Positions 29,725-57,687 of a stretch of 64,000 nucleotides of DNA are shown here, in pieces. Position 1 is the first letter of the stretch, and every line of letters begins with the position of its first letter. Source of the DNA: an uncultured delta proteobacterium. Its GTDB lineage: Bacteria; Myxococcota_A; UBA9160; SMWR01. A program made the translations under genes and the position numbers. The notes beneath the pieces were generated by a model. The model worked only from the letters and a program-made list of their open reading frames with translations. It was not told where the DNA came from and did no database searches. Location: assembly GCA_963832165.1 (NCBI GenBank), contig CAWHTE010000007.1, positions 672,001-736,000 of the forward strand, given 5' to 3'.

Positions 29725-30856
29725 TCATCTCACACGGTGGGCCAGCGCCGCAGCCACCGCGATCGCGGCGCACCAGAGAGCAAGGCTGCCGAAGCCGAGA
29801 CCGATCCCGGCCGCGTCTCCTGCGGCGCCCGTGAGCCAGGGCACCGCGAAGCCGCCGAGCGCGCCCGCACCCGCCACGAGGCCGGTCGCCATGCCGCGCG
29901 CCGAGGGCGCGGCCTGGCCCGCGAGCGCGATCATCACGGGATAGATGCTGCCGAGCGCAGCGCCGAGCGCGAACAGCGCGACCTCGAGCGGCGTGCCCGC
30001 GAAGCTCGCCGTCGCCGCGAGCACCACCGTGGCGGCCGCGCCCGAGGCCAGGAGCACGCGCGCGTCGAGCGCGTGCGTGTCGAGCACGCGCGCGCCGAGC
30101 AACGCGACGCGGCCGACCAGGAGACCCAGCCAGAACGCGCTGATGCCGAGCTGTCCGCGCGCCGCGTCGAGCCCGAGCGCCTCGCTCGCGTACGGAACCG
30201 CGAACACCGTCACCGACGACTCGACGCCGACGTAGGCGAAGGCGACCGCTGCGAGCGGAATGAGCGGCGCGAGCGCGAGTGAGGCACGCGCTTCGCGATC
30301 GGGTGTCGGTACGCGCGGCTCCGGGCCGGGCAGCGGCACGCACGCGGCCCACCCGGCGAGCAGCACATGCGCCCAGCCGAGCGCGTGGAAGCTGTCCGTG
30401 AAGTGGTGGGTCGAGGCGATCCAGCCGACCAGCGGCGGTCCGAACATCGCGCCAACCGTGGCGGCCGAGTGCACGGCGAGCATCGGCCGCACCGCGCGCT
30501 CGCGATAGCGCTGCACCACCACCGCGTTGATCAGCGTGTCGTAGAGCCCGATTCCCGCGCCCGCGAACGCCGCGTGCGCGAGCCAGCGCGCATAGCCCAT
30601 CTCGCGTTCGACCCCGAGCAGCGCGGCGGCGGCCACCAGGGTCGATCCCACGAACAGCGGGCGGCGCGGATAGCGGTCGAAGAGCGGTCCCGCGATCACG
30701 ACGCCTGCGCCGAGCCCGAGTGCGAGCGACGAGGCGAGCAGGCCCGACTGCGAGAGATCGAGCCCGAGCTCGTGCGGCGAGATTCGCCTGGTTGGCGCCG
30801 ACCAGCACGAGCACCACGCCGAAGGCGAGGAACGCGCAGAAGCACAGCGCCAGCAC
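29725..30856 (-). CDS. MFS transporter (frameshift near 30775)
   Basis: GPLFDRYPRR motif A and about 12 TM helices; first TM is in the adjacent frame. Confidence 0.82.
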
Positions 30857-30917
30857 CGGCGGGAGGCTATCTCAGATGGGCGTCGTCTCCGCGTCGCGCA
30901 GCGCGGAATGTGAGTGC

Positions 30918-31965
30918 CTACGGAAGTGCGTCGAGCCAGTCGAGCACGGCCTCCATGTAGAGCTGCGCGTTGAGCATCTGGTTCATGTCGTGGCCCGCAG
31001 CGGGCAGGATGTAGGCGTCGATCGACGGGACGTTCGGACCCAGGCGCGGTCCCTCGAACGCGATCAGCGCCTGCTCGCTCGTGCACGGCGCACCACCGAG
31101 CGCGGGCCCGCAGAAGAGCGAGTCGACTTCGCCGACGGTCAGGAACACCGGCACACGAATGTCGAGCGGGTGCAACAGGATCAGCGGATAGGTCTGGAGC
31201 TCGGACGAACGTGACGGTTCCCTTGGTCATCTCGTCGTAGCGAACCACCGCAGGATCGACGGTGGCGGGCGCGTAGAACGCCCCGTGACGCGAACCGACT
31301 TGGGTCGTCAGGTAACCGGGATCGAGCCCCGAGAACACGCCGAAGCGCGGATCGGCCAGCGCCGGGTACAGATTCGGTACGACGAGCACGGGCGCATTCA
31401 CGGTCGTGAGCCCGTGGGTGGCGCCCGTGAGGACGACGGCGTCGACGTCGTCGTAGCGGCTGGCTTCGAACCAGATCGTCCAGCTGCCGTAGGAGTGGCC
31501 GACCAGCACCACGGAATCGAACACCTTGCCATTGGCATCGGCGATCGTGCCCGCGCGGACGGCCTGGACCACCTGGTGCACCGTGTGGGCATTCGTATCG
31601 ATCGTCACGAACGCGCTCAGCGGATGGGAGCTGTTGCCGGCGCCGATCCGATCGAGCGCGAGCGTCGAGTATCCCGCCGCGAGCGCAGCGGCGACGAACG
31701 AGTAGCGATCGGTGTGACCCGTCGGGTCGGGGAAGTCCCAGTAGTTGCGGTCGTAGGTGATGCCGTGCACGAGCACGAGCAGCGTGCCCGTCGGCGCCGG
31801 GCCGGGGCGGCACAGCCGCCCGAAGATCTTCTGGTTGACCGGAGCGCCCGGCGCGAGTGCGACCGGGACGGTGACGTTGCTGCACACCGCGTTTGCCGCG
31901 GAGCTCGCGAACGAGCCGAGCGATGCCAGGACGCCCAAGGTGAGCGCGAACCATCGAGCGCGCAT
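30918..31965 (-). CDS. Secreted alpha/beta hydrolase (frameshift near 31204)
   Basis: Signal peptide, LVHGITY, nucleophile GHSYG, GEVDSLFC and AGHDMN (Ser-Asp-His triad). Confidence 0.85.
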
Positions 31966-32127: not shown

Positions 32128-32508
32128 TCAGAGCATTCCGAGCTCGAGCTTCGCGGCTTCGGACATCATCCCGGGGTTCCAGGGGGGATCCCACACCAGG
32201 TCGAGCACCACCGACGATACGCCCTCGACGCTGCGCGCTTTCGACTCCACCTCGGGCGGCAGCTCCTCGGCGGCTGGACACATCGGCGAGGTGAGCGTCA
32301 TCTGGATCTGGACCGCGCCGCTGTCGTCGAGCTTCACCTTGTAGATCAGGCCGAGCTCGTAGATGTCGACGGGGATCTCGGGATCGAACACGGTCTTGAG
32401 CTGCTGCACGATGCGGTCGCCCACCGCGCGCATGGCTGCGGGCGCCTCGACGATCGCGTCGAAGTCCGGGCTCTGGGTCTCTTTCTGCGGGGTCGTTTCG
32501 TCACTCAT
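32128..32508 (-). CDS. sufT: SUF system Fe-S assembly protein, DUF59 (SufT-like)
   Basis: DPEIPVDIYELGLIY, MTLTSPMCP and WDPPW motifs. Confidence 0.9.
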   Translation of the reverse strand: MSDETTPQKETQSPDFDAIVEAPAAMRAVGDRIVQQLKTVFDPEIPVDIYELGLIYKVKLDDSGAVQIQMTLTSPMCPAAEELPPEVESKARSVEGVSSVVLDLVWDPPWNPGMMSEAAKLELGML

Positions 32509-32513
32509 TGCGA

Positions 32514-34187
<1,674 letters not shown>

Positions 34188-34191
<4 letters not shown>

Positions 34192-35516
34192 GCTGCCTCC
34201 TCACGGGCGCGGCGCAGACACGCGACTACCGCATCGTCCAGCCCCTCGGCAAGCGCGCGCGCGGGCAGGCGCTCGAGCACCTCGAGCGCGAACCCGCGCA
34301 GCAGGAGGTCGCGCGCGCGCTGTTCGGGGATTCCGCGCGAGCGCAGGTAGAACAGCGCGTTCTCGTCGAGCCGCCCGATCGTCGAGCCGTGGCTGCATTT
34401 CACGTCGTCGGCGTAGATTTCGAGCTGGGGCTTGGTGTCGATCTCGGCGCGCGCGCCCAGGAGCAGGTTCGGGTTCGACTGCGAGGCGGAGGTCTTCTGC
34501 GCGTCGGGTCGCACGATCACGCGGCCGCGGAACACGCCGCGCGCCGCGCCGCCGAGCGCGCCCTTGTAGAGCTCCCGGCTCGTGCCGTGCGGTACCGCGT
34601 GATCCACTTCGGTGTGGTTGTCGAGCACGCTGTTGCCGCCGCCGACGAACAGACCGTCGAGAGTGCACTGCGCGCCCTCGCCCGCGAGGAGCACACCCGC
34701 GTCGTTGCGCACGAGCCGGCCGCCCAGCGTGATCGTGTGCGCGCTGAAAGTACTGTCGCGTTCCTGGCGCACCGAGAGGTTCGAGACGTGGAAGTGCGCA
34801 TCGCCCTCGCGCTGCAGCAGCACCCAGTGGACGGTCGCGTTCGCTCCCACGTGGATCTCGGTCACTGCATTGGTGAAGCCGGGACCCTCGCCCACGCTCA
34901 CGTGATCCTGGACGATCGTCACGCGGCTGCCCGCCTCCGCCACGACCACGACGCGCGGATGGGCCATGTGCGGCTGCGCGCCGCCGACGCTCGCAAACAC
35001 CAGATGCAGCGGCTGTTCGAAGGCGACGCCGCGCGGCGCGCGCACGACCGCGCCGTCGCTCGCGAACGCCGAGTTGAGCGCGGCGAACGGGTGCAGCTTG
35101 ATGTCGACGTAGTGATCGAGACGCGCCTCGATCGGGCTCGTGCCGTCCGCGAGCAGCGCGGCCAGGCTGTCGCAGCGCGCTCCGCCGGGCAGGCCCGGTG
35201 CCGAGGACAGCGCGGGCAACGCGCGGCCGTTCGAGAACGCGTACAGGCTGCACGCGAACAGCGGCGTCGCGAGCTCCTCGAGATCGGCGCGCTCGATGCG
35301 CGCGGGCTCTGCGAGCGAGAACGGCAGCGCTGCGAGCGGAGCGAGGCTCGTGTAGCGCCACTCTTCCTCGCGCGTGCTCGGTAGCCCGCGCTCTGCGAAC
35401 GCAGCGATCGCGTCGCGTCGGTGCGCCGCGAGCCAGGCCGGCTCTCCGCGGCGCGTTTCCGCGAACGCGCGGTGCTCGGCCACGAAGCGGTCGCGCGCGG
35501 TCTCGAGCGCGCTCAT
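34188..35516 (-). CDS. sufD: Fe-S cluster assembly protein SufD
   Basis: EEWRYT, KPQLEIYADDVKCSHG and FYLRSRGI motifs. Confidence 0.95.
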
Positions 35517-36273
35517 CGCGCCGTTCCCTCGACCCAGCCGTAGCCCTTGTCCTCGAGCTCGAGCGCGAGCTCCTTGCCCCCGCTCTTCACGATCCGACCG
35601 CCCGCCAACACGTGCACCGCGTCGGGCACGATGTAGTCGAGCAGGCGCTGGTAGTGCGTGATCACGAGCATCGACCGCTCGGGATGGCGCAGCGCGTTGA
35701 CGCCGTCCGCGACGACCCTCAGCGCGTCGATGTCGAGCCCCGAGTCGGTCTCGTCGAGCACCGCGAACTTCGGCTCCAGGATCGCCATCTGGAGGATCTC
35801 ATTGCGCTTCTTCTCGCCGCCCGAGAACCCTTCGTTGACCGAGCGCTGCATGAGCTTCTCGTCCATCTCGACGAGCTTCATCTTCTCGCGTGCGAGCGCG
35901 AGGAAGTCGATCGCGTCGAGCTCCGGCTCTCCGCGGTGGCTGCGCACCGCGTTGAGCGCGGCCTTGAGGAAGTACATGTTCGCGACGCCCGGAATCTCGA
36001 CGGGGTACTGGAAGGCCAGGAAGATTCCCTCGCGCGCGCGCTCCTCGGCCGACAGCGCGAGCAGGTCGCGGCCCTCGTAGCGCACCGATCCGCGCGTGAC
36101 CTCCACCGAGGGACGACCCGCGAGCACGTTGGCGAGCGTGCTCTTGCCCGATCCGTTCGGGCCCATGATCGCGTGCACCTGGCCGGGCGGAATGACGAGG
36201 TCCACTCCCTTGAGGATCTCGGCACCGCCGGCAGTCGCGTGCACGTCCGAAAGCTCGAGCATCGGCGTCCCCA

Positions 36274-36274
<1 letters not shown>
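35513..36274 (-). CDS. sufC: Fe-S cluster assembly ATPase SufC
   Basis: MGPNGSGKST, FQYPVEIPGV, FSGGEKKRNE and LDETDSGLD motifs. Confidence 0.96.
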
Positions 36275-37734
<1,460 letters not shown>

Positions 37735-37747
37735 GGGGGTTCCTTGG

Positions 37748-38224
37748 TTAGGTCAGCGGTCGCGTGTCGAGGCCGGTCGTATCCACGCCGAGGCTCGCGA
37801 GCGGGACGAGCGAGCCGGGTGCGTCGAGCGCGGCGAGATCGGCCAGGCGGATCCGCGAGAGCGCGTCGTGCACCGCCCGATTGATCCGCTGCCATGGCGT
37901 GCGCACGTGGCAGCGCGGCTCCTGTGAGCACGCGCCCTCGTGCAGGTTGCAGTCAGTGAGCGCGATCGGGCCCTCGAGCGCCGCGATCATGTCGGGCACC
38001 GTGATGCTCTCGGCGGGGCGCGCGAGCCGATAGCCGCCCTTCGCGCCGCGCGCCGACGCGAGCAGACCTTCGCGCGCGAGCGCCTTGAGCAGCTTGCTCA
38101 CCGCGGGTAGCGGGAGCTGGGTCTCGGCGGCGATGTCGCGCGCTGCGTGCGGGCCCTCCCCGGCGCTCGCGAGGTGCGCCATCAGCACGATGCCGTAGTC
38201 GGTGAGTCTGCCCAGGCGGATCAT
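37748..38224 (-). CDS. Rrf2-family SUF system regulator
   Basis: [19 protein letters not shown] and three Cys (CNLHEGAC...C); first gene of the suf operon. Confidence 0.92.
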
Positions 38225-38351: not shown

Positions 38352-39593
38352 TCAGCCGCCGGATGCGATCAGCGACCCCAGCGCGGGAAGGCCATCGCGC
38401 GGCCAGTCGAGCGGGGGGCTCTGGAGCTCTCCCGGGCTGCAGACCCGCGAGGCGCCCAGCGCGCGGAGCCCGGCTTCGACCCCGGGCTGGGCGCGGCCGA
38501 AACCCGCAACCGCGACGCCGGCGAGGTGCGCCGCGAGCGGCCCGAGCGCGTGGCCGAGCTGCTCGGGTGCAGGGAGCGGGTGCACGCGGACGAAGCGGTG
38601 CAGCGGAGCCGGACGCAGCGCCGCTTCGGACTCGCAGACGACCGCCCAGCTCGCGTCGCGCGCAGCGTGCACGGTCACCTGCGAGCCCGCGGCCGCGCGC
38701 AGCTCGGCGCCCGCGAGCTCGTGGGCGAACAGCGCGGCCGCACCCGCGTCGACCGCGCCGCGCGGCAGCGCGCGACCGACTGCGTCGAGCTCGCGCGCGA
38801 GCGCGTCTGCGACGCGCCGACACGAGCTGGTGTCGCCTGCGACGTAGACCGCGATCGGCGATAGACAGCCCAGCTGATCCCAGAGCGCCGTGTCGAGCGC
38901 GATGCCGCGCGCGGCGGCGTCGAGTGCGCCGCCGTCGCAGGACTCCGGGCCGAGCAGCGCGAGCGAGAGCCGGTGCCCGTGGCGCAGCAGCGCCTGGTGC
39001 GGGCGCATCCGCTCAGCGACCGCAGCGATCGTCGCGTCGGAGCCCGTCGCGAGTACGCAGCTCGCGCCCAGGAAGGCCTCCATGCACGCCGCATCCGTAC
39101 CCGCGAATCCGACCACCTCCACGCAGCGGCCAAGCTCGGGATCGATCGCCGCGATCGAGCGCGCGACGAGCGGCGCGGTGATCCGGTCCCGCGCGGCGGT
39201 CTTCACGAGCACGGGTGAGCGCAGCGCGAGCGGCGCGATCACTGAGAGCAGCGCCGGCATCGGAATCGAGCCCGCGAGCAGCACCGAGGTCACGTCGTAC
39301 CCGCGCGCGAGCTCTCCACTGCGCGCGAGCTCGCGCTCGGCGAGCGCGCGCAGCGCGTCGCCGGTCCAGGGTGCGAGCCCACGCGCGAGCCCCTCGAGCA
39401 CGTTCTGCGGCGAGAAGCCGGTCGCTGCGGGCAGCTCGCGTTCGAGCGCGCTCCGCTCGGGCCCTTCGCGATCGCGCCAGCGCTCGAGCACGGCGGCGAG
39501 CGCGTCGATCACTGCGCGCGCGGGCCGCCGCCGCAGCTCTTCGCCAGCCGCGCGCAGCGCCGCGAGGCGCGCGCGCAGCGCGTCGGGTGTCAC
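38352..39593 (-). CDS. Acyl-CoA/acyl-protein reductase, LuxC-like
   Basis: ALDH-fold motifs LAGSIP, VLVK, ATGSDATI, HGHRLS; catalytic Cys in WDQLGCLSP. Confidence 0.85.
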   Translation of the reverse strand: MTPDALRARLAALRAAGEELRRRPARAVIDALAAVLERWRDREGPERSALERELPAATGFSPQNVLEGLARGLAPWTGDALRALAERELARSGELARGYDVTSVLLAGSIPMPALLSVIAPLALRSPVLVKTAARDRITAPLVARSIAAIDPELGRCVEVVGFAGTDAACMEAFLGASCVLATGSDATIAAVAERMRPHQALLRHGHRLSLALLGPESCDGGALDAAARGIALDTALWDQLGCLSPIAVYVAGDTSSCRRVADALARELDAVGRALPRGAVDAGAAALFAHELAGAELRAAAGSQVTVHAARDASWAVVCESEAALRPAPLHRFVRVHPLPAPEQLGHALGPLAAHLAGVAVAGFGRAQPGVEAGLRALGASRVCSPGELQSPPLDWPRDGLPALGSLIASGG

Positions 39594-40711
39594 GGCCCCG
39601 CGTCCGCGAGCAGCGCGTCGGCGCCGATCGAGCAGCCGCGCTCCTCGGCGTCGGCGTCGCGGCCGATCACCTCGAAGCCGTCGCCGATCGCGCAGCCGAG
39701 ATCGGCCGTCTCGAGCGCACACACGCTGCCCGTGTTCGCGAGGTCGTGCACCGCGATGCGGCCGCGCGCGCCCGGTGCGACCTCCTCGCCGCTGATCGGA
39801 TCCAGGATCCGCACGCGCGTCCACGGCGGCGCGATTTTGCGGCGCGGCGCAGCCGGCTCGCGCAGCAGCGAGTCGTAGAACTGGCTGCCGAGCTCGGTCA
39901 TCCCGTATTGATTGACGATGCGCGCGGGCGGCACACCGAGGCGGTCCTCGATCCAGCCGTAGAGCTCGGCGCGCGGCAGGCTGCGCGAGCGCCCCTTGAA
40001 CCCGCCCGTCTCCATCACGCGCGCAGCGCGCGGCAACGCGAAGCGGATGGCGCGGCGCTCGAGCTCCTCGAGCAGGTGCACGAACGCGAACGCGGTGCCG
40101 CCGACGAACACGGCTCGATCCGCGCGCGACGCCGCTTCGAGCTCGCGCAGCGCGCGCGGCACGTCGAGCCCGCCGCTCTCGATCCAGTGGCTGCTCTCCG
40201 GGCTTCCGGCCTCCCGCATCGCGATGTCGAACATGTGCGAGAGCGAGGAGTCGCTCGCCTCGCGCGCGCTCGGCGCGAGAACGTGGAACGGAATCCGCTC
40301 GCGCGGCGCGAGGTCGGGCAGCAAGGCGCGCGCGAACGATGCGAACAGCGACGCCTCGTAGACCGCGAGCGTATCGAGCAGCAGCGCGCCGCGCTGCGCG
40401 TGCGCGGTAGTGCCGCTGGTGCGGAACACGAACGCGGCGCGCTCGCGTTCGAAGCTCGTGAGCGAGAGCTCCTTGAATGCGCCGGTCGGGACGGCGGGCA
40501 CGTCCTGCCAGCGGCGCACGACCGCGGGCGTGCGCCCGCGCGCTTCGCAGAAGCGGCGATAGGGTGCGCAGCGCTCGAACTGGAACGCGAACAGCGCGAG
40601 CGCGAGATCCTCGAAGCGCGCGTCGTCGCCGCGCCACGACGTCTCGCGGGTCCACGCGATCACGGCCGCATCGAGCTCTGCGCGCGCGGGGTCGGGTCCG
40701 GCGACGCTCAT
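39590..40711 (-). CDS. Acyl-protein synthetase, LuxE-like
   Basis: FRTSGTT, METGGFKGR, NQYGMTELGSQFY, DLANTGS and C-terminal RGCS acylation Cys. Confidence 0.88.
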   Translation of the reverse strand: MSVAGPDPARAELDAAVIAWTRETSWRGDDARFEDLALALFAFQFERCAPYRRFCEARGRTPAVVRRWQDVPAVPTGAFKELSLTSFERERAAFVFRTSGTTAHAQRGALLLDTLAVYEASLFASFARALLPDLAPRERIPFHVLAPSAREASDSSLSHMFDIAMREAGSPESSHWIESGGLDVPRALRELEAASRADRAVFVGGTAFAFVHLLEELERRAIRFALPRAARVMETGGFKGRSRSLPRAELYGWIEDRLGVPPARIVNQYGMTELGSQFYDSLLREPAAPRRKIAPPWTRVRILDPISGEEVAPGARGRIAVHDLANTGSVCALETADLGCAIGDGFEVIGRDADAEERGCSIGADALLADAGP

Positions 40712-41962
40712 CGCAGCTCGTCCACGAGCGCGTCGAGCGCGAAATCGAGCGCTTCGCGGCCGATCGAGAGCGGCGGCGAGAGCGCGATCACGCGCGCGTC
40801 GTCGCCGGCCGGCAGCGCGATCACGCCGCGCGCGAGCAGGCCGCCGAGTGCGCTGCGCACCACTTCGGGCCCGCTGCACTCCACGCCCAGCAACAGCCCG
40901 CGGCCGCGCACCTCGGTAACCCTCGCGAGGTCGGCGGTGGCGCCGCGAAGCCGCGAGAGCACCTGCGCCCCGACCTCTGCAGCGCGCTCGACGAGCTTCT
41001 CCTCCTCCAGCACGGCGAGCGACGCGAGCGCAGCTGCGCACGCGGGCGGATGTCCGAGGAAGGTCTGGGTGTGGAGCGCTTCCCCGCGCGAGGGCGGCCA
41101 GGCATCCATCACCTCGGCGCGCCCGATGCACGCGGAGATCGGCATGCCCGAGGAGAGGCCCTTGCCCACGCACAGCAGGTCGGGCCGCACTCCCTCGTGT
41201 TCGCACGCGAACCACGCGCCCGTGCGCCCGAAGCCCGTGTAGACCTCGTCGGCGACGAGCAGCCATCCCTCGGCGTCGCACACGCGGCGCAGCTCCGCGA
41301 GAAAGCCCGCGGGCGGGACGCGCTCTCCCCCGCGGCCCTGGATCGGCTCGACGATCACCGCGCCGACGGCGCGTTCCACACGCGGCCGCCGCGCGGCGCA
41401 CGTCGGCGGCATCCCCAAAGTGCGCAAACGCGGTCGCGTGCGCGAGCCGTGCCGCGAACGGCGCGCGGAACTCGTCGCGGTGCGTTGCATCGAGCGCTCC
41501 GATCGCGAGCCCGTGATAGGCGCCCTCGAACGCGACGACTCCCGTGCGCCCGGTCGCGAGTGCCGCGGTCTTCAGCGCGATCTCGACCGCATCGCTGCCC
41601 GACGATCCGAGCACTGCGCGCGCGGGACCTCCGCCCGGAAAGCGCCGCGCGAGCGCCTCGAGCAACTCCACCTTGACCGGTGACGGATGGACGTCGCCCA
41701 TCGCGTGCATGAGCGTGGCCGCCTGCTCCGCCACGGCGCCCACCACGCGCGGATGCGCGTGGCCGACGTTCGCGACCCCGAACGCCGCGCCGAGGTCGAC
41801 ATAGCGGTTGCCGTCGACGTCCCAGACGTTCGCGCCGAACGCGCGCTGCCAGAAGATCGGCTCGGGGTCGAGGCAGGTGACGTTGCGCGACTCCACGAGC
41901 GCGAGGCGCCTCGCGAGCTCGCGCGAGCGCGGGCCGGGGACGCGCGTGTGAAGCGCGGGCAA
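40708..41962 (-). CDS. Class III PLP aminotransferase (frameshift near 41373; start approximate)
   Basis: WDVDGNRYVD, SGSDAVEIALK, AYHG; EPIQGRGG, DEVYTGFGRTG, PDLLCVGK and VRGRGL motifs. Confidence 0.9.
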
Positions 41963-42010
41963 TATCGGTGTGGGGGGCCACGCGCGGCAGTGTAGCTGTA
42001 AGATCGCGTC

Positions 42011-42560
42011 GTGACGGCGAATCCCACACCGGCGGCCGAGCGCGCGCGGGCGGGCGAGCACACCGCCTACGTCGCGCTCGGATCCAATCTCGGCGAACGC
42101 GAACACCACCTCGCGGCCGCGCTCGCAGCGCTGCGCGCGCTGCGCGGGGTTCGCGACGTCGCGTCTTCGCGCATCTACGAGACCGATCCGGTCGGGCCGG
42201 GCGAACAGCGGCCCTATCTGAACGCGGTCGCGCGTCTGCACACGCACCTCGCACCGCGCGAGCTGCTCGAGCGGTTGCTCGCGATCGAGCGCAGTGAAGG
42301 TCGCGAGCGCGGCGCCGGTGCGCAACGCACCGCGCACGCTCGACCTCGACCTGCTGCTCTACGACGATTGCGAGCTCAGTGAGTCGGACCTCGTCGTTCC
42401 GCATCCGCGCATGACGCAGCGCCCGTTCGTACTCGAGCCGCTCTGCGAGCTCGCACCCGATCTCGTGATCCCGGGCCTGGGTGCGCGGGTCTCCGCGCTC
42501 GCCGAGGCGGTTCGCGACCCGGACGCGGTGCGCGTGCGCGAGACTCGAGTCGGGAGGTAG
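42011..42560 (+). CDS. folK: HPPK, 2-amino-4-hydroxy-6-hydroxymethyldihydropteridine diphosphokinase (frameshift near 42314)
   Basis: [23 protein letters not shown] and [15 protein letters not shown] in the second frame. Confidence 0.93.
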
Positions 42561-42562
42561 TG

Positions 42563-42865
42563 ATGGCGATCGCGGCGGTCAGCATCTCGCCGGTCGGTGT
42601 CGGGACCAGCGTCTCCCGGTACGTGGCGGCTGCGCTCGAGGTCGTGCGCGCACAGGACCGCGTTCGCTACCGGCTCGATCCGATGTTCACCACGCTCGAA
42701 GGTGAGCTCGGCGACATCTACGCGCTCGTCCATGCGATGCAGGAGGCGGTGTTCACCGCGGGCGCCGAGCGCGTGGGTACCGTGATCAAGATCGACGACC
42801 GGCGCGATCGCACAGTGCGCATGGAAGACAAGATTTCCTCCGTCGAGCAGCTGCTCGGAGACTGA
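42563..42865 (+). CDS. MTH1187/YkoF thiamine-binding family protein
   Basis: SVSRYVA, PMFTTLEG and IKIDDRRD motifs. Confidence 0.88.
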   Translation: MAIAAVSISPVGVGTSVSRYVAAALEVVRAQDRVRYRLDPMFTTLEGELGDIYALVHAMQEAVFTAGAERVGTVIKIDDRRDRTVRMEDKISSVEQLLGD

Positions 42866-56681: not shown

Positions 56682-57687
56682 CTAGCGCCCCAGCTCGCGC
56701 GCGACCTCCGCCCACGGCTCGGGATCGCGCGACCAGTGCGCGAGCAGGCTCACGCGATCCGCGAGATCGCCGCAGCGCTCGCGCACGCGCGCGGCCACGC
56801 GATCCATCGGCGCGCAGATCGCCACCGCTTCGAGCAGCTCGTCGCTGATCAGGCCCGTCATCTCGGCCCACTGGCCGCGCTTCGAGAGCGCGTTCAGCTC
56901 GGGCTGGAGATCGCCCAGGCCGTGGGCATCGAGCACGACGCGATAGGCGGGCGTCGAGGCGTAGAACGCGATCTGACCCTTGGTGAGGTTGCGGGTGCGC
57001 TCGGTCTCTTCGTCGTTCGCGCCGCTCGCCACCATGATCTGGAACGAGAGCTTCACGTCCTTGCGCGCGCGACCCGCGGCGGCGATGCCGCGCTCGATCG
57101 CGGGTAGCGTCACCTCGGCCACCGACTTCGCGGTGTTGAACGGGTGCACGAAGAAGCCGTCGGCGACCTCGCCCGCCACCTCGGTCATGCGCGGTCCGAC
57201 GCCCGCGATGAAGATCGGCGGGTTTCCGTACGGGTTCGCGCCCGGGTTGAACGCCGGGATCATCAGCGTGTGCTGATAGAACTCGCCGCGGAAATCGAGC
57301 CGGCCGCCCTCGGCCCAGCAGCGCCAGATCTCGCGGATCGCGAGCACCATCTCGCGCATGCGCGCGGCCGGGGCGCGACCACGGCATCGAGAAGCGCTTC
57401 TCGATGTGCGGGCGGATCTGCGTGCCGAGCCCGAGCAGGAAGCGGCCCTTCGAAAGCGCCTGCAGATCCCAGCCGATGTTCGCGAGCAGCATCGGGTTGC
57501 GCGCGAACGCGATCGCGATCGCGGTGTAGAGCTCGATGCGCTCGGTAGTCTGGGAGGCGAGCACGAGCGGGAAGAAGGGATCGTGCGGGCCTTCGAAGGT
57601 GAAGCCGCCGTCGTAGCCGAGCTGCTCGAGGCGACGCGCGGCCTCGCCGGGCGCGCTCGCATCCATGATCGCGGCATCGACCTTCAT
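56682..57687 (-). CDS. LLM-class, probably F420-dependent oxidoreductase (frameshift near 57370)
   Basis: HDPFFPL, AIAFARNPM, LGLGTQIRPHIEKRF; GEFYQHTLM and FYASTPAY motifs. Confidence 0.88.

Follow-up and report, generated by a model that had tools for sequence, protein, structure and literature searches.

Reviews of queuosine synthesis, in the parts open to us (PMC11130926, PMC13740343, PMC13602947), give QueC and QueF as the steps that convert 7-carboxy-7-deazaguanine (CDG) to 7-aminomethyl-7-deazaguanine (preQ1). Here we describe a trio of coupled genes that, judged by sequence and by analogy with known enzymes, probably provides a route from CDG to preQ1 independent of both. It lies on the minus strand of a 64,000-nucleotide stretch of contig CAWHTE010000007.1 (assembly GCA_963832165.1, positions 672,001 to 736,000; this whole stretch is the window of what follows) from an uncultured delta proteobacterium of the Myxococcota, and encodes in order a class III pyridoxal phosphate (PLP) aminotransferase (41981-40708), a LuxE-like adenylating acyl-protein synthetase (40711-39590) and a LuxC-like acyl-protein thioester reductase (39593-38352). 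Such a route would be new; its product and its enzyme families are already known. No literature on CDG reduction with transamination, or on LuxE or LuxC in queuosine synthesis, was found by a search whose coverage mostly excluded subscription papers.

QueC (preQ0 synthase) and QueF (nitrile reductase), as described in the available parts of PMC13740343 and PMC11130926, would share with the trio the substrate CDG, the product preQ1 and the place between QueE and Tgt. The folds, however, are unrelated, a thioester and an aldehyde would replace the amide and the nitrile, preQ0 would not be made, and the nitrogen would come from an amino donor by PLP chemistry. The aldehyde concerned, 7-formyl-7-deazaguanine, has been described before: gating mutants of QueF release it (PMC13740343, same parts). 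The LuxC-LuxE complex of Photobacterium phosphoreum (PDB 7XC6; PMC9157457, partial text) is homologous to two of the trio enzymes and has the cysteine motifs KGCxLS in LuxE and DQQAC in LuxC where the window has RGCS and DQLGC, but the trio has no linked luxAB or luxD, lacks a segment of the LuxC cleft, and is coupled to an aminotransferase as a single-copy core gene set mirroring QueC and QueF. Closest in chemistry are TabE/TabA and TamH of tambjamine synthesis (bioRxiv 10.1101/2025.08.11.669332, partial text), in which thioester reduction yields an aldehyde that class III transamination turns into a primary amine. These act on a C12 chain bound to acyl carrier protein (ACP) within a secondary-metabolite cluster, whereas the trio has no ACP, relies on a self-acylating activator of the LuxE type, and is conserved phylum-wide in single copy.

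A distribution opposite to that of QueC and QueF

CDG suggests itself as the substrate because the phyletic pattern of the trio mirrors that of QueC and QueF while a QueE-like protein, Tgt and QueA are kept. The LuxE-like gene is present in 38 of 41 relatives and in 249 of 301 genomes of the phylum, almost always as a single copy, and over these same 301 genomes QueC (TIGR00364) was found in 47 of the 52 that lack the LuxE-like gene (45 over the cut-off) against 8 of the 249 that have it. Strong matches to QueF (E < 1e-29), which was counted in this phylum only, occur in 40 of the 52 LuxE-negative genomes and in two of the 249 LuxE-positive ones (G179 and G311). These two are also among the eight genomes in which QueC and a LuxE-like match meet, and there the LuxE matches are weak (E 1.7e-5 and 1.7e-4). 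As for the other six, the LuxE of G286 belongs to another clade, with no aminotransferase orthologue in that genome, the QueC matches of G182 and G296 are fragments below the cut-off, G318 has its QueC on a 6.5-kb contig, and in G219 and G269 QueC lies within separate que clusters next to genes that are not housekeeping ones. These clusters (L103:4716-11999 and L105:283-5998) hold QueC, QueE, QueD and a FolE2-like gene, and resemble what we take to be 7-deazaguanine DNA-modification islands.

Fourteen further QueF matches score in the middle range, one in G167 and the others in LuxE-positive genomes. All six of these proteins that were read lack the cysteine of the C-P-x-T-G-Q-P-D motif seen in strong QueF, which we take to be the catalytic one; the catalytic cysteine of QueF is a necessary residue, according to the accessible portion of PMC13740343. 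The proteins without the motif are 183-201 aa long, have an N-terminal extension and occur in trio genomes without QueC (L097:4516-5121, L098:4083-4634, L099:4650-5231, L100:4615-5196, L101:2105-2707 and L102:3234-3836). A PF14489 match (5e-6) in the window's own genome was rejected as QueF, the protein being FolE, and similar weak matches elsewhere were assumed to be FolE and left out of the count.

The same opposition is found at close range. G167 lacks the trio and has QueC and QueF side by side, nine members of its family have the LuxE-like gene and no QueC, and the case is one of a switch between the trio and QueC/QueF inside a single family. The aminotransferase travels with the LuxE-like gene: its orthologue is present in 40 of 42 strong-LuxE genomes, including those where the genes are unlinked, in none of 31 LuxE-negative QueC-positive genomes, and in two of five genomes lacking both LuxE-like gene and QueC, where its persistence suggests assembly gaps.

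Two other phyla repeat the pattern. Within the first, that of G323 and probably Vulcanimicrobiota to judge by the LuxE tree, 141 genomes were compared, and QueC exceeds the cut-off in none of 93 with a strong LuxE against 21 of the 48 others; two of the 93 have a sub-cut-off QueC. Among the Acidobacteriota (the phylum of G469) the figures are none of five against 127 of 136. Two of these genomes are flagged as unpublished, G434 among the 93 and G494 among the 127; without them the counts are 92 and 126. Nor does any of ten genomes reached through LuxE loci of various phyla, two of which overlap these samples, have a QueC over the cut-off. Three 1.9-Mb genomes (G479, G538 and G573; loci L282, L287 and L285) carry a LuxE-like gene of intermediate score, and QueC was not found in them.

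The operon and its enzymes

The trio is a real and conserved operon. The initial annotation, made from the letters of the window, had described three genes coupled by ATGA and GTGA overlaps, with the cysteines of RGCS and DQLGC intact, standing alone as a unit without luciferase, and this description holds throughout. The aminotransferase and LuxE-like genes overlap by ATGA at 40708-40711, the LuxE-like and LuxC-like genes by GTGA at 39590-39593. Both of the latter are uninterrupted and present in one copy each in their own genome (tblastn). The LuxE-like frame (39590..40711, minus strand, 373 aa), the predicted CDG-activating enzyme, matches PF04443 at 56 bits (cut-off 24.9), with a TSGTT loop, a GGFKGR stretch and a C-terminus ...ERGCSIG containing Cys360; the LuxC-like frame (38352..39593, minus strand, 413 aa), predicted to release 7-formyl-7-deazaguanine, matches PF05893 at 154.7 bits (cut-off 21) and has Cys243 in DQLGC. 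A Pfam scan of the 49 further open reading frames of the window revealed no luxA, luxB or luxD. One luciferase-like protein alone turned up, encoded at 56682-57677 and thus 15 kb off, and it is an F420-dependent oxidoreductase of the luciferase-like monooxygenase (LLM) type, over the cut-off of TIGR03617.

The aminotransferase gene, by contrast with its uninterrupted neighbours, is in pieces. Its N-terminal part (41378..41981, minus strand) begins with GTG at 41981, breaks frame within about ten codons (between ~41975 and ~41953) and has YHGL where GabT has YHGR; its C-terminal part (40708..41377), past a second break at ~41372-41366, carries DEVYTG and the PLP-lysine motif CVGKGL, and its stop overlaps the LuxE-like start. 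The PF00202 matches lie in different frames, at 41980-41378 (107.9 bits) and 41361-40708 (220.8 bits). An assembly error is the likely cause, since the adjoining sufS and folK are also frame-broken and a near-identical 151-letter contig spanning 41841-41992 (depth 2) differs by one gap; the many one-base breaks in the window indicate an indel-prone assembly. Across 29 related loci the aminotransferase is intact, a single frame 423-434 aa long; that of L015, cut by a contig end, has 388 aa.

Within the order, the aminotransferase lies directly 5' of the LuxE-like gene in 30 of 30 loci, the window's included, and the LuxC-like gene directly 3' in 29 of 30, the remaining locus ending at a contig edge. 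Four-base overlaps, with start codons chosen by our own heuristic, were counted in 24 of 29 and 25 of 28 junctions of the related loci. Further afield, the aminotransferase is within the locus in 26 of 40 wider loci picked to span families. A scan of GTDB contigs listed at least 80 loci, and the phyla among the matches listed include Myxococcota, Vulcanimicrobiota, Gemmatimonadota, Acidobacteriota, Verrucomicrobiota, Binatota and others. Some of the GTDB loci among these matches have the order LuxE, LuxC, aminotransferase. In five such loci (L159, L168, L169, L173 and L176) a Gfo/Idh/MocA oxidoreductase follows, with a Cys/Met PLP enzyme and a CoA-binding protein upstream; L168 and L173 cluster with Vulcanimicrobiota in the LuxE tree. 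In L069:6516-8831 (G262) LuxE and LuxC are fused into one protein of 771 aa immediately after the aminotransferase. The phage collection held no LuxE-like match, and the ESM Atlas search returned LuxE clusters only. A single-copy, phylum-wide distribution of this kind is the pattern of a housekeeping function.

The chemistry that the initial annotation had proposed, from acid through aldehyde to amine, remains by analogy the best-fitting one; its fatty acid substrate is not supported. Aligned to 7XC6, the cysteines of RGCS and DQLGC fall on the catalytic ones of LuxE and LuxC, Cys360 being invariant in 31 of 31 aligned LuxE-like and Cys243 in 26 of 26 aligned LuxC-like sequences, and GGFKGR aligns with the GGWKTK stretch of LuxE. 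That no solved relatives other than LuxE and LuxC were found does favour a path from long-chain fatty acid through fatty aldehyde to a fatty amine or amino-lipid, resembling the tambjamine tail, as does the precedent of dodecylamine synthesis by the omega-transaminase TabA together with TabE, a protein that clusters with LuxC (bioRxiv 10.1101/2025.08.11.669332, partial text). We nevertheless hold this path to be highly improbable. Scores against the NCBIfam equivalogs are far under the cut-offs (54.7 of 550 bits for LuxE, 64.9 of 750 for LuxC), the LuxC-like profile stops at residue 447 of the 477-residue 7XC6 chain, about 30 residues short, and 7-27 residues (median 17) follow the DG motif in 26 LuxC-like sequences against 46 in 7XC6. 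The segment P460-P488, which completes the 40-Å hydrophobic cleft of LuxC (PMC9157457, partial text), is missing. No recurring ACP, thioesterase or lipid gene appeared beside the trio in a neighbour survey of order-level and wider loci, luxD and luxAB do not recur in the wider loci, and the trio is flanked by folK, suf and housekeeping genes of various kinds, with no bipyrrole cluster; the path would leave the mirror with QueC and QueF unexplained, and the phyletic pattern points to CDG. Fatty amines and amino-lipids, offered as products by the initial annotation, are thus not supported, and its further idea of reverse, catabolic use fits poorly with ATP-dependent adenylation and with retention of the trio in a 1.8-Mb genome.

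The aminotransferase shares with GabT, ArgD, ornithine aminotransferase (OAT) and PatA the fold, the PLP lysine and the GGxxxP and DE motifs, and its best solved matches are GabT (8.7e-102) and putrescine aminotransferase. The initial annotation had asked whether it would group with housekeeping enzymes of this kind; instead it forms an orthologous group of its own, whose members match the profile at E <= 7e-126 where paralogues give >= 1.3e-106. It accompanies the LuxE-like gene and falls under every NCBIfam cut-off shown. It also differs in having Leu or Val at the GabT Arg position (YHGL/V) in 25 of 25 aligned sequences. The carboxylate-binding arginine (Arg180 of OAT) we assume to correspond to the HGR motif. 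In gamma-aminobutyrate aminotransferase (GABA-AT), OAT and acetylornithine aminotransferase (AcOAT) an arginine binds the substrate carboxyl (PMC4244111, in the part available). Its loss would suit an alkyl substrate too, and is expected for CDG-derived aldehyde, because the proposed substrate has no distal carboxylate.

A proposed route from CDG to preQ1 and its rivals

We infer all enzymatic steps of the proposed route from the chemistry of LuxE, LuxC and class III aminotransferases, together with the phyletic complementarity. The LuxE-like enzyme would adenylate the CDG carboxyl with ATP to give CDG-AMP and then form a thioester on Cys360. The acyl group would move to Cys243 of the LuxC-like enzyme, where reduction by NAD(P)H would free 7-formyl-7-deazaguanine, and the aminotransferase would aminate this aldehyde to preQ1, with glutamate or alanine the likely donor. 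Tgt would insert preQ1 into tRNA. The carboxyl carbon of CDG would thus become the aminomethyl carbon, and the nitrile intermediate, preQ0, would be bypassed.

The remainder of the pathway is largely in place around this gap. In a panel of 80 genomes (63 LuxE-positive, 17 negative) QueA is present in all 80, and so in 63 of 63 LuxE-positive genomes, and a QueE-like gene was found in all 63, in 57 with the query from the window's genome and in six with other queries; QueE models were best for all seven QueE candidates scanned. In the window's own genome FolE adjoins two QueD-like genes, and there are also a divergent QueE-like gene and a Tgt retaining Cys158 and Val233, which make it preQ1-type by the residue comparison of PMC3660597 (partial text), Tgt residues being those of this genome only. 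QueC and QueF were not found there (89% complete). The QueE-like gene (G000:C4:658329-659099, or L095:1483-2253; about 256 aa) is far under all QueE cut-offs and follows a conserved 375-aa gene without an NCBIfam match at 1e-10; in G147:C48, G225:C1, G069:C69, G167:C19 and G110:C138 the QueE-like gene adjoins thiC.

The same phyletic data would agree with a trio that belongs to the deazaguanine pathway but acts on a CDG nucleotide or on tRNA-CDG, or makes another 7-substituted product such as an alcohol, giving a queuosine variant. QueA requires an aminomethyl group, and its retention in the whole LuxE-positive panel, the preQ1-type residues of Tgt and the tracking of the aminotransferase with the LuxE-like gene all tell against such a variant, which we judge very unlikely, even though the QueE-like protein of the order is divergent and a phage DpdA2 inserts CDG at low efficiency (PMC10516641, in the part available).

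Unlikely too, if somewhat less remote, is that a different small amine of housekeeping use is the product of the trio, preQ1 is salvaged, and the mirror with QueC and QueF is a coincidence of lineage. Few physical links to que genes, the preQ0/preQ1 transporter QPTR in three of five trio genomes, and sister LuxE clades at thiamine- and homocitrate-linked loci, which imply that the family switches substrates, speak for it. The mirror, however, is repeated in three phyla and inside one family; the QueE-like gene is kept throughout the 63 genomes, though no further role is listed for CDG in tRNA modification; and QPTR was not found in two trio genomes that are 99% complete (G005 and G052), while it is present in E. 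coli, taken as a control. Replacement of lysine, ornithine, beta-alanine or thiamine-pyrimidine synthesis was rejected, for the markers LysA, ArgC, PanD and ThiC are present, leaving no such gap: PanD, LysA and ArgC are over the cut-off in four of five trio genomes and ThiC occurs in 54 of 63 LuxE-positive against 12 of 17 LuxE-negative panel genomes. The exception, the 1.8-Mb genome G125, lacks PanD, ArgC and any over-cut-off LysA but keeps the trio, a QueE-like gene and QueA.

Several observations weigh against the route from CDG to preQ1, and the weakest point is the sparse clustering of the trio with que genes. Among 120 wider loci QueE occurs in two, FolE in two and a weak QueD-like gene in one; in L181 QueE immediately precedes LuxE-LuxC, and in L065 about 3 kb separate it from the trio. 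QPTR, which the window's own genome has, means that salvage could supply preQ1. Only one of the seven QueE candidates is over a cut-off, the order's QueE-like protein reaching 71 bits against a curated cut-off of 206, and no QueA turned up in the genome to which the window belongs, at 89% completeness. There is the mid-scoring QueF-like gene in 13 LuxE-positive genomes, and, in the Acidobacteriota, three of five LuxE-positive genomes have no LuxC within 1.5 kb and two of five have a sub-cut-off QueC-like gene. Lastly, 32 of the 52 LuxE-negative genomes of the home phylum were deduced from gaps in the numbering of the match list, and the genomes are related, so that the counts in all phyla overstate their independence.

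Neighbouring genes, offshoot clades and significance

Upstream of the trio on the other strand (42011-42865) are folK (42011..42560, plus strand, in two frames here) and a thiamine-binding protein of the MTH1187 family; folK recurs near the trio within the order. Downstream (32128-38224) is a complete suf operon, with sufS in pieces, headed by its Rrf2 regulator (37748..38224, minus strand), which recurs in close kin only. An alpha/beta-hydrolase and a major facilitator superfamily transporter share one 746-aa frame at 29725-31965, where a frame break may have joined them artificially. No Rfam match, and hence no preQ1 riboswitch, was found in the window or in five trio loci. The sequencing-run search listed no RNA run and only shares of <=0.10, and therefore bears on neither expression nor habitat.

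A LuxE tree of 129 LuxE-like stretches, from which loci with fewer than 270 matched residues were excluded, contains two offshoot clades, 12 thiamine-linked and 8 linked to homocitrate synthase, each with its own residues at positions 118, 155-160 and 206 of the putative acyl pocket; SSL residues are common to the thiamine clade and the trio-type LuxE. Thiamine salvage was rejected as the role of the trio, the loci linked to thiamine pyrophosphate (TPP) being a separate clade with a short-chain dehydrogenase/reductase (SDR) and no aminotransferase. Their neighbours are the SDR, ABC/NMT1 and ThiD/ThiE genes, with a TPP riboswitch in two of three plasmid loci. The arrangement LuxE-LuxC-SDR, often with an NMT1/THI5 ABC transporter or ThiD/ThiE, was read in L142:8767-12312, L143:8683-14809, L144, L160, L161 and L163, and further in L165, L167, L170, L171 and L180; these loci are candidates for a salvage in which a thiamine fragment oxidised to the carboxylic acid is returned to its alcohol. 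Since this clade, with its TPP riboswitches and thiamine-salvage genes, is nested in the LuxE subfamily of the trio, the subfamily plausibly handles small heteroaromatic acids.

A link of the trio to homocitrate or aminoadipate was likewise rejected, the homocitrate loci forming another separate clade. Four of five genomes of this clade also have the aminotransferase orthologue and at least two LuxE matches, and the full trio was read in two. In this clade (L055, L070, L074, L081, L051, L175, L191 and L194) the neighbours of LuxE/LuxC are a B12 radical-SAM protein resembling TIGR04190, a homocitrate-synthase-like gene, the large and small subunits of homoaconitase and an FAD oxidoreductase, with isocitrate-type dehydrogenase and aminotransferase both absent from the loci, which look like an undescribed pathway of 2-oxoacid elongation and reduction.

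Taken as a whole, most Myxococcota and parts of several other phyla probably make queuosine de novo by a nitrile-free LuxE/LuxC/transaminase route, the LuxE/LuxC family being at root one of reductases for cofactor and nucleobase acids, with thiamine-salvage and homocitrate-linked offshoots. Genomes without QueC and QueF would otherwise be scored as salvagers; if the route is true, a great many bacteria would be counted as makers of queuosine (in this phylum alone the middle gene is present in 249 of 301 genomes), and reconstructions of queuine supply in soils and microbiomes would change. Genes widely misannotated as 'long-chain fatty acid ligase / acyl-CoA reductase' would gain a function, and a carrier-free cascade from carboxylate to amine would be at hand for a heteroaromatic acid. 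It would also suggest the housekeeping background from which the reductases of bioluminescence may derive.

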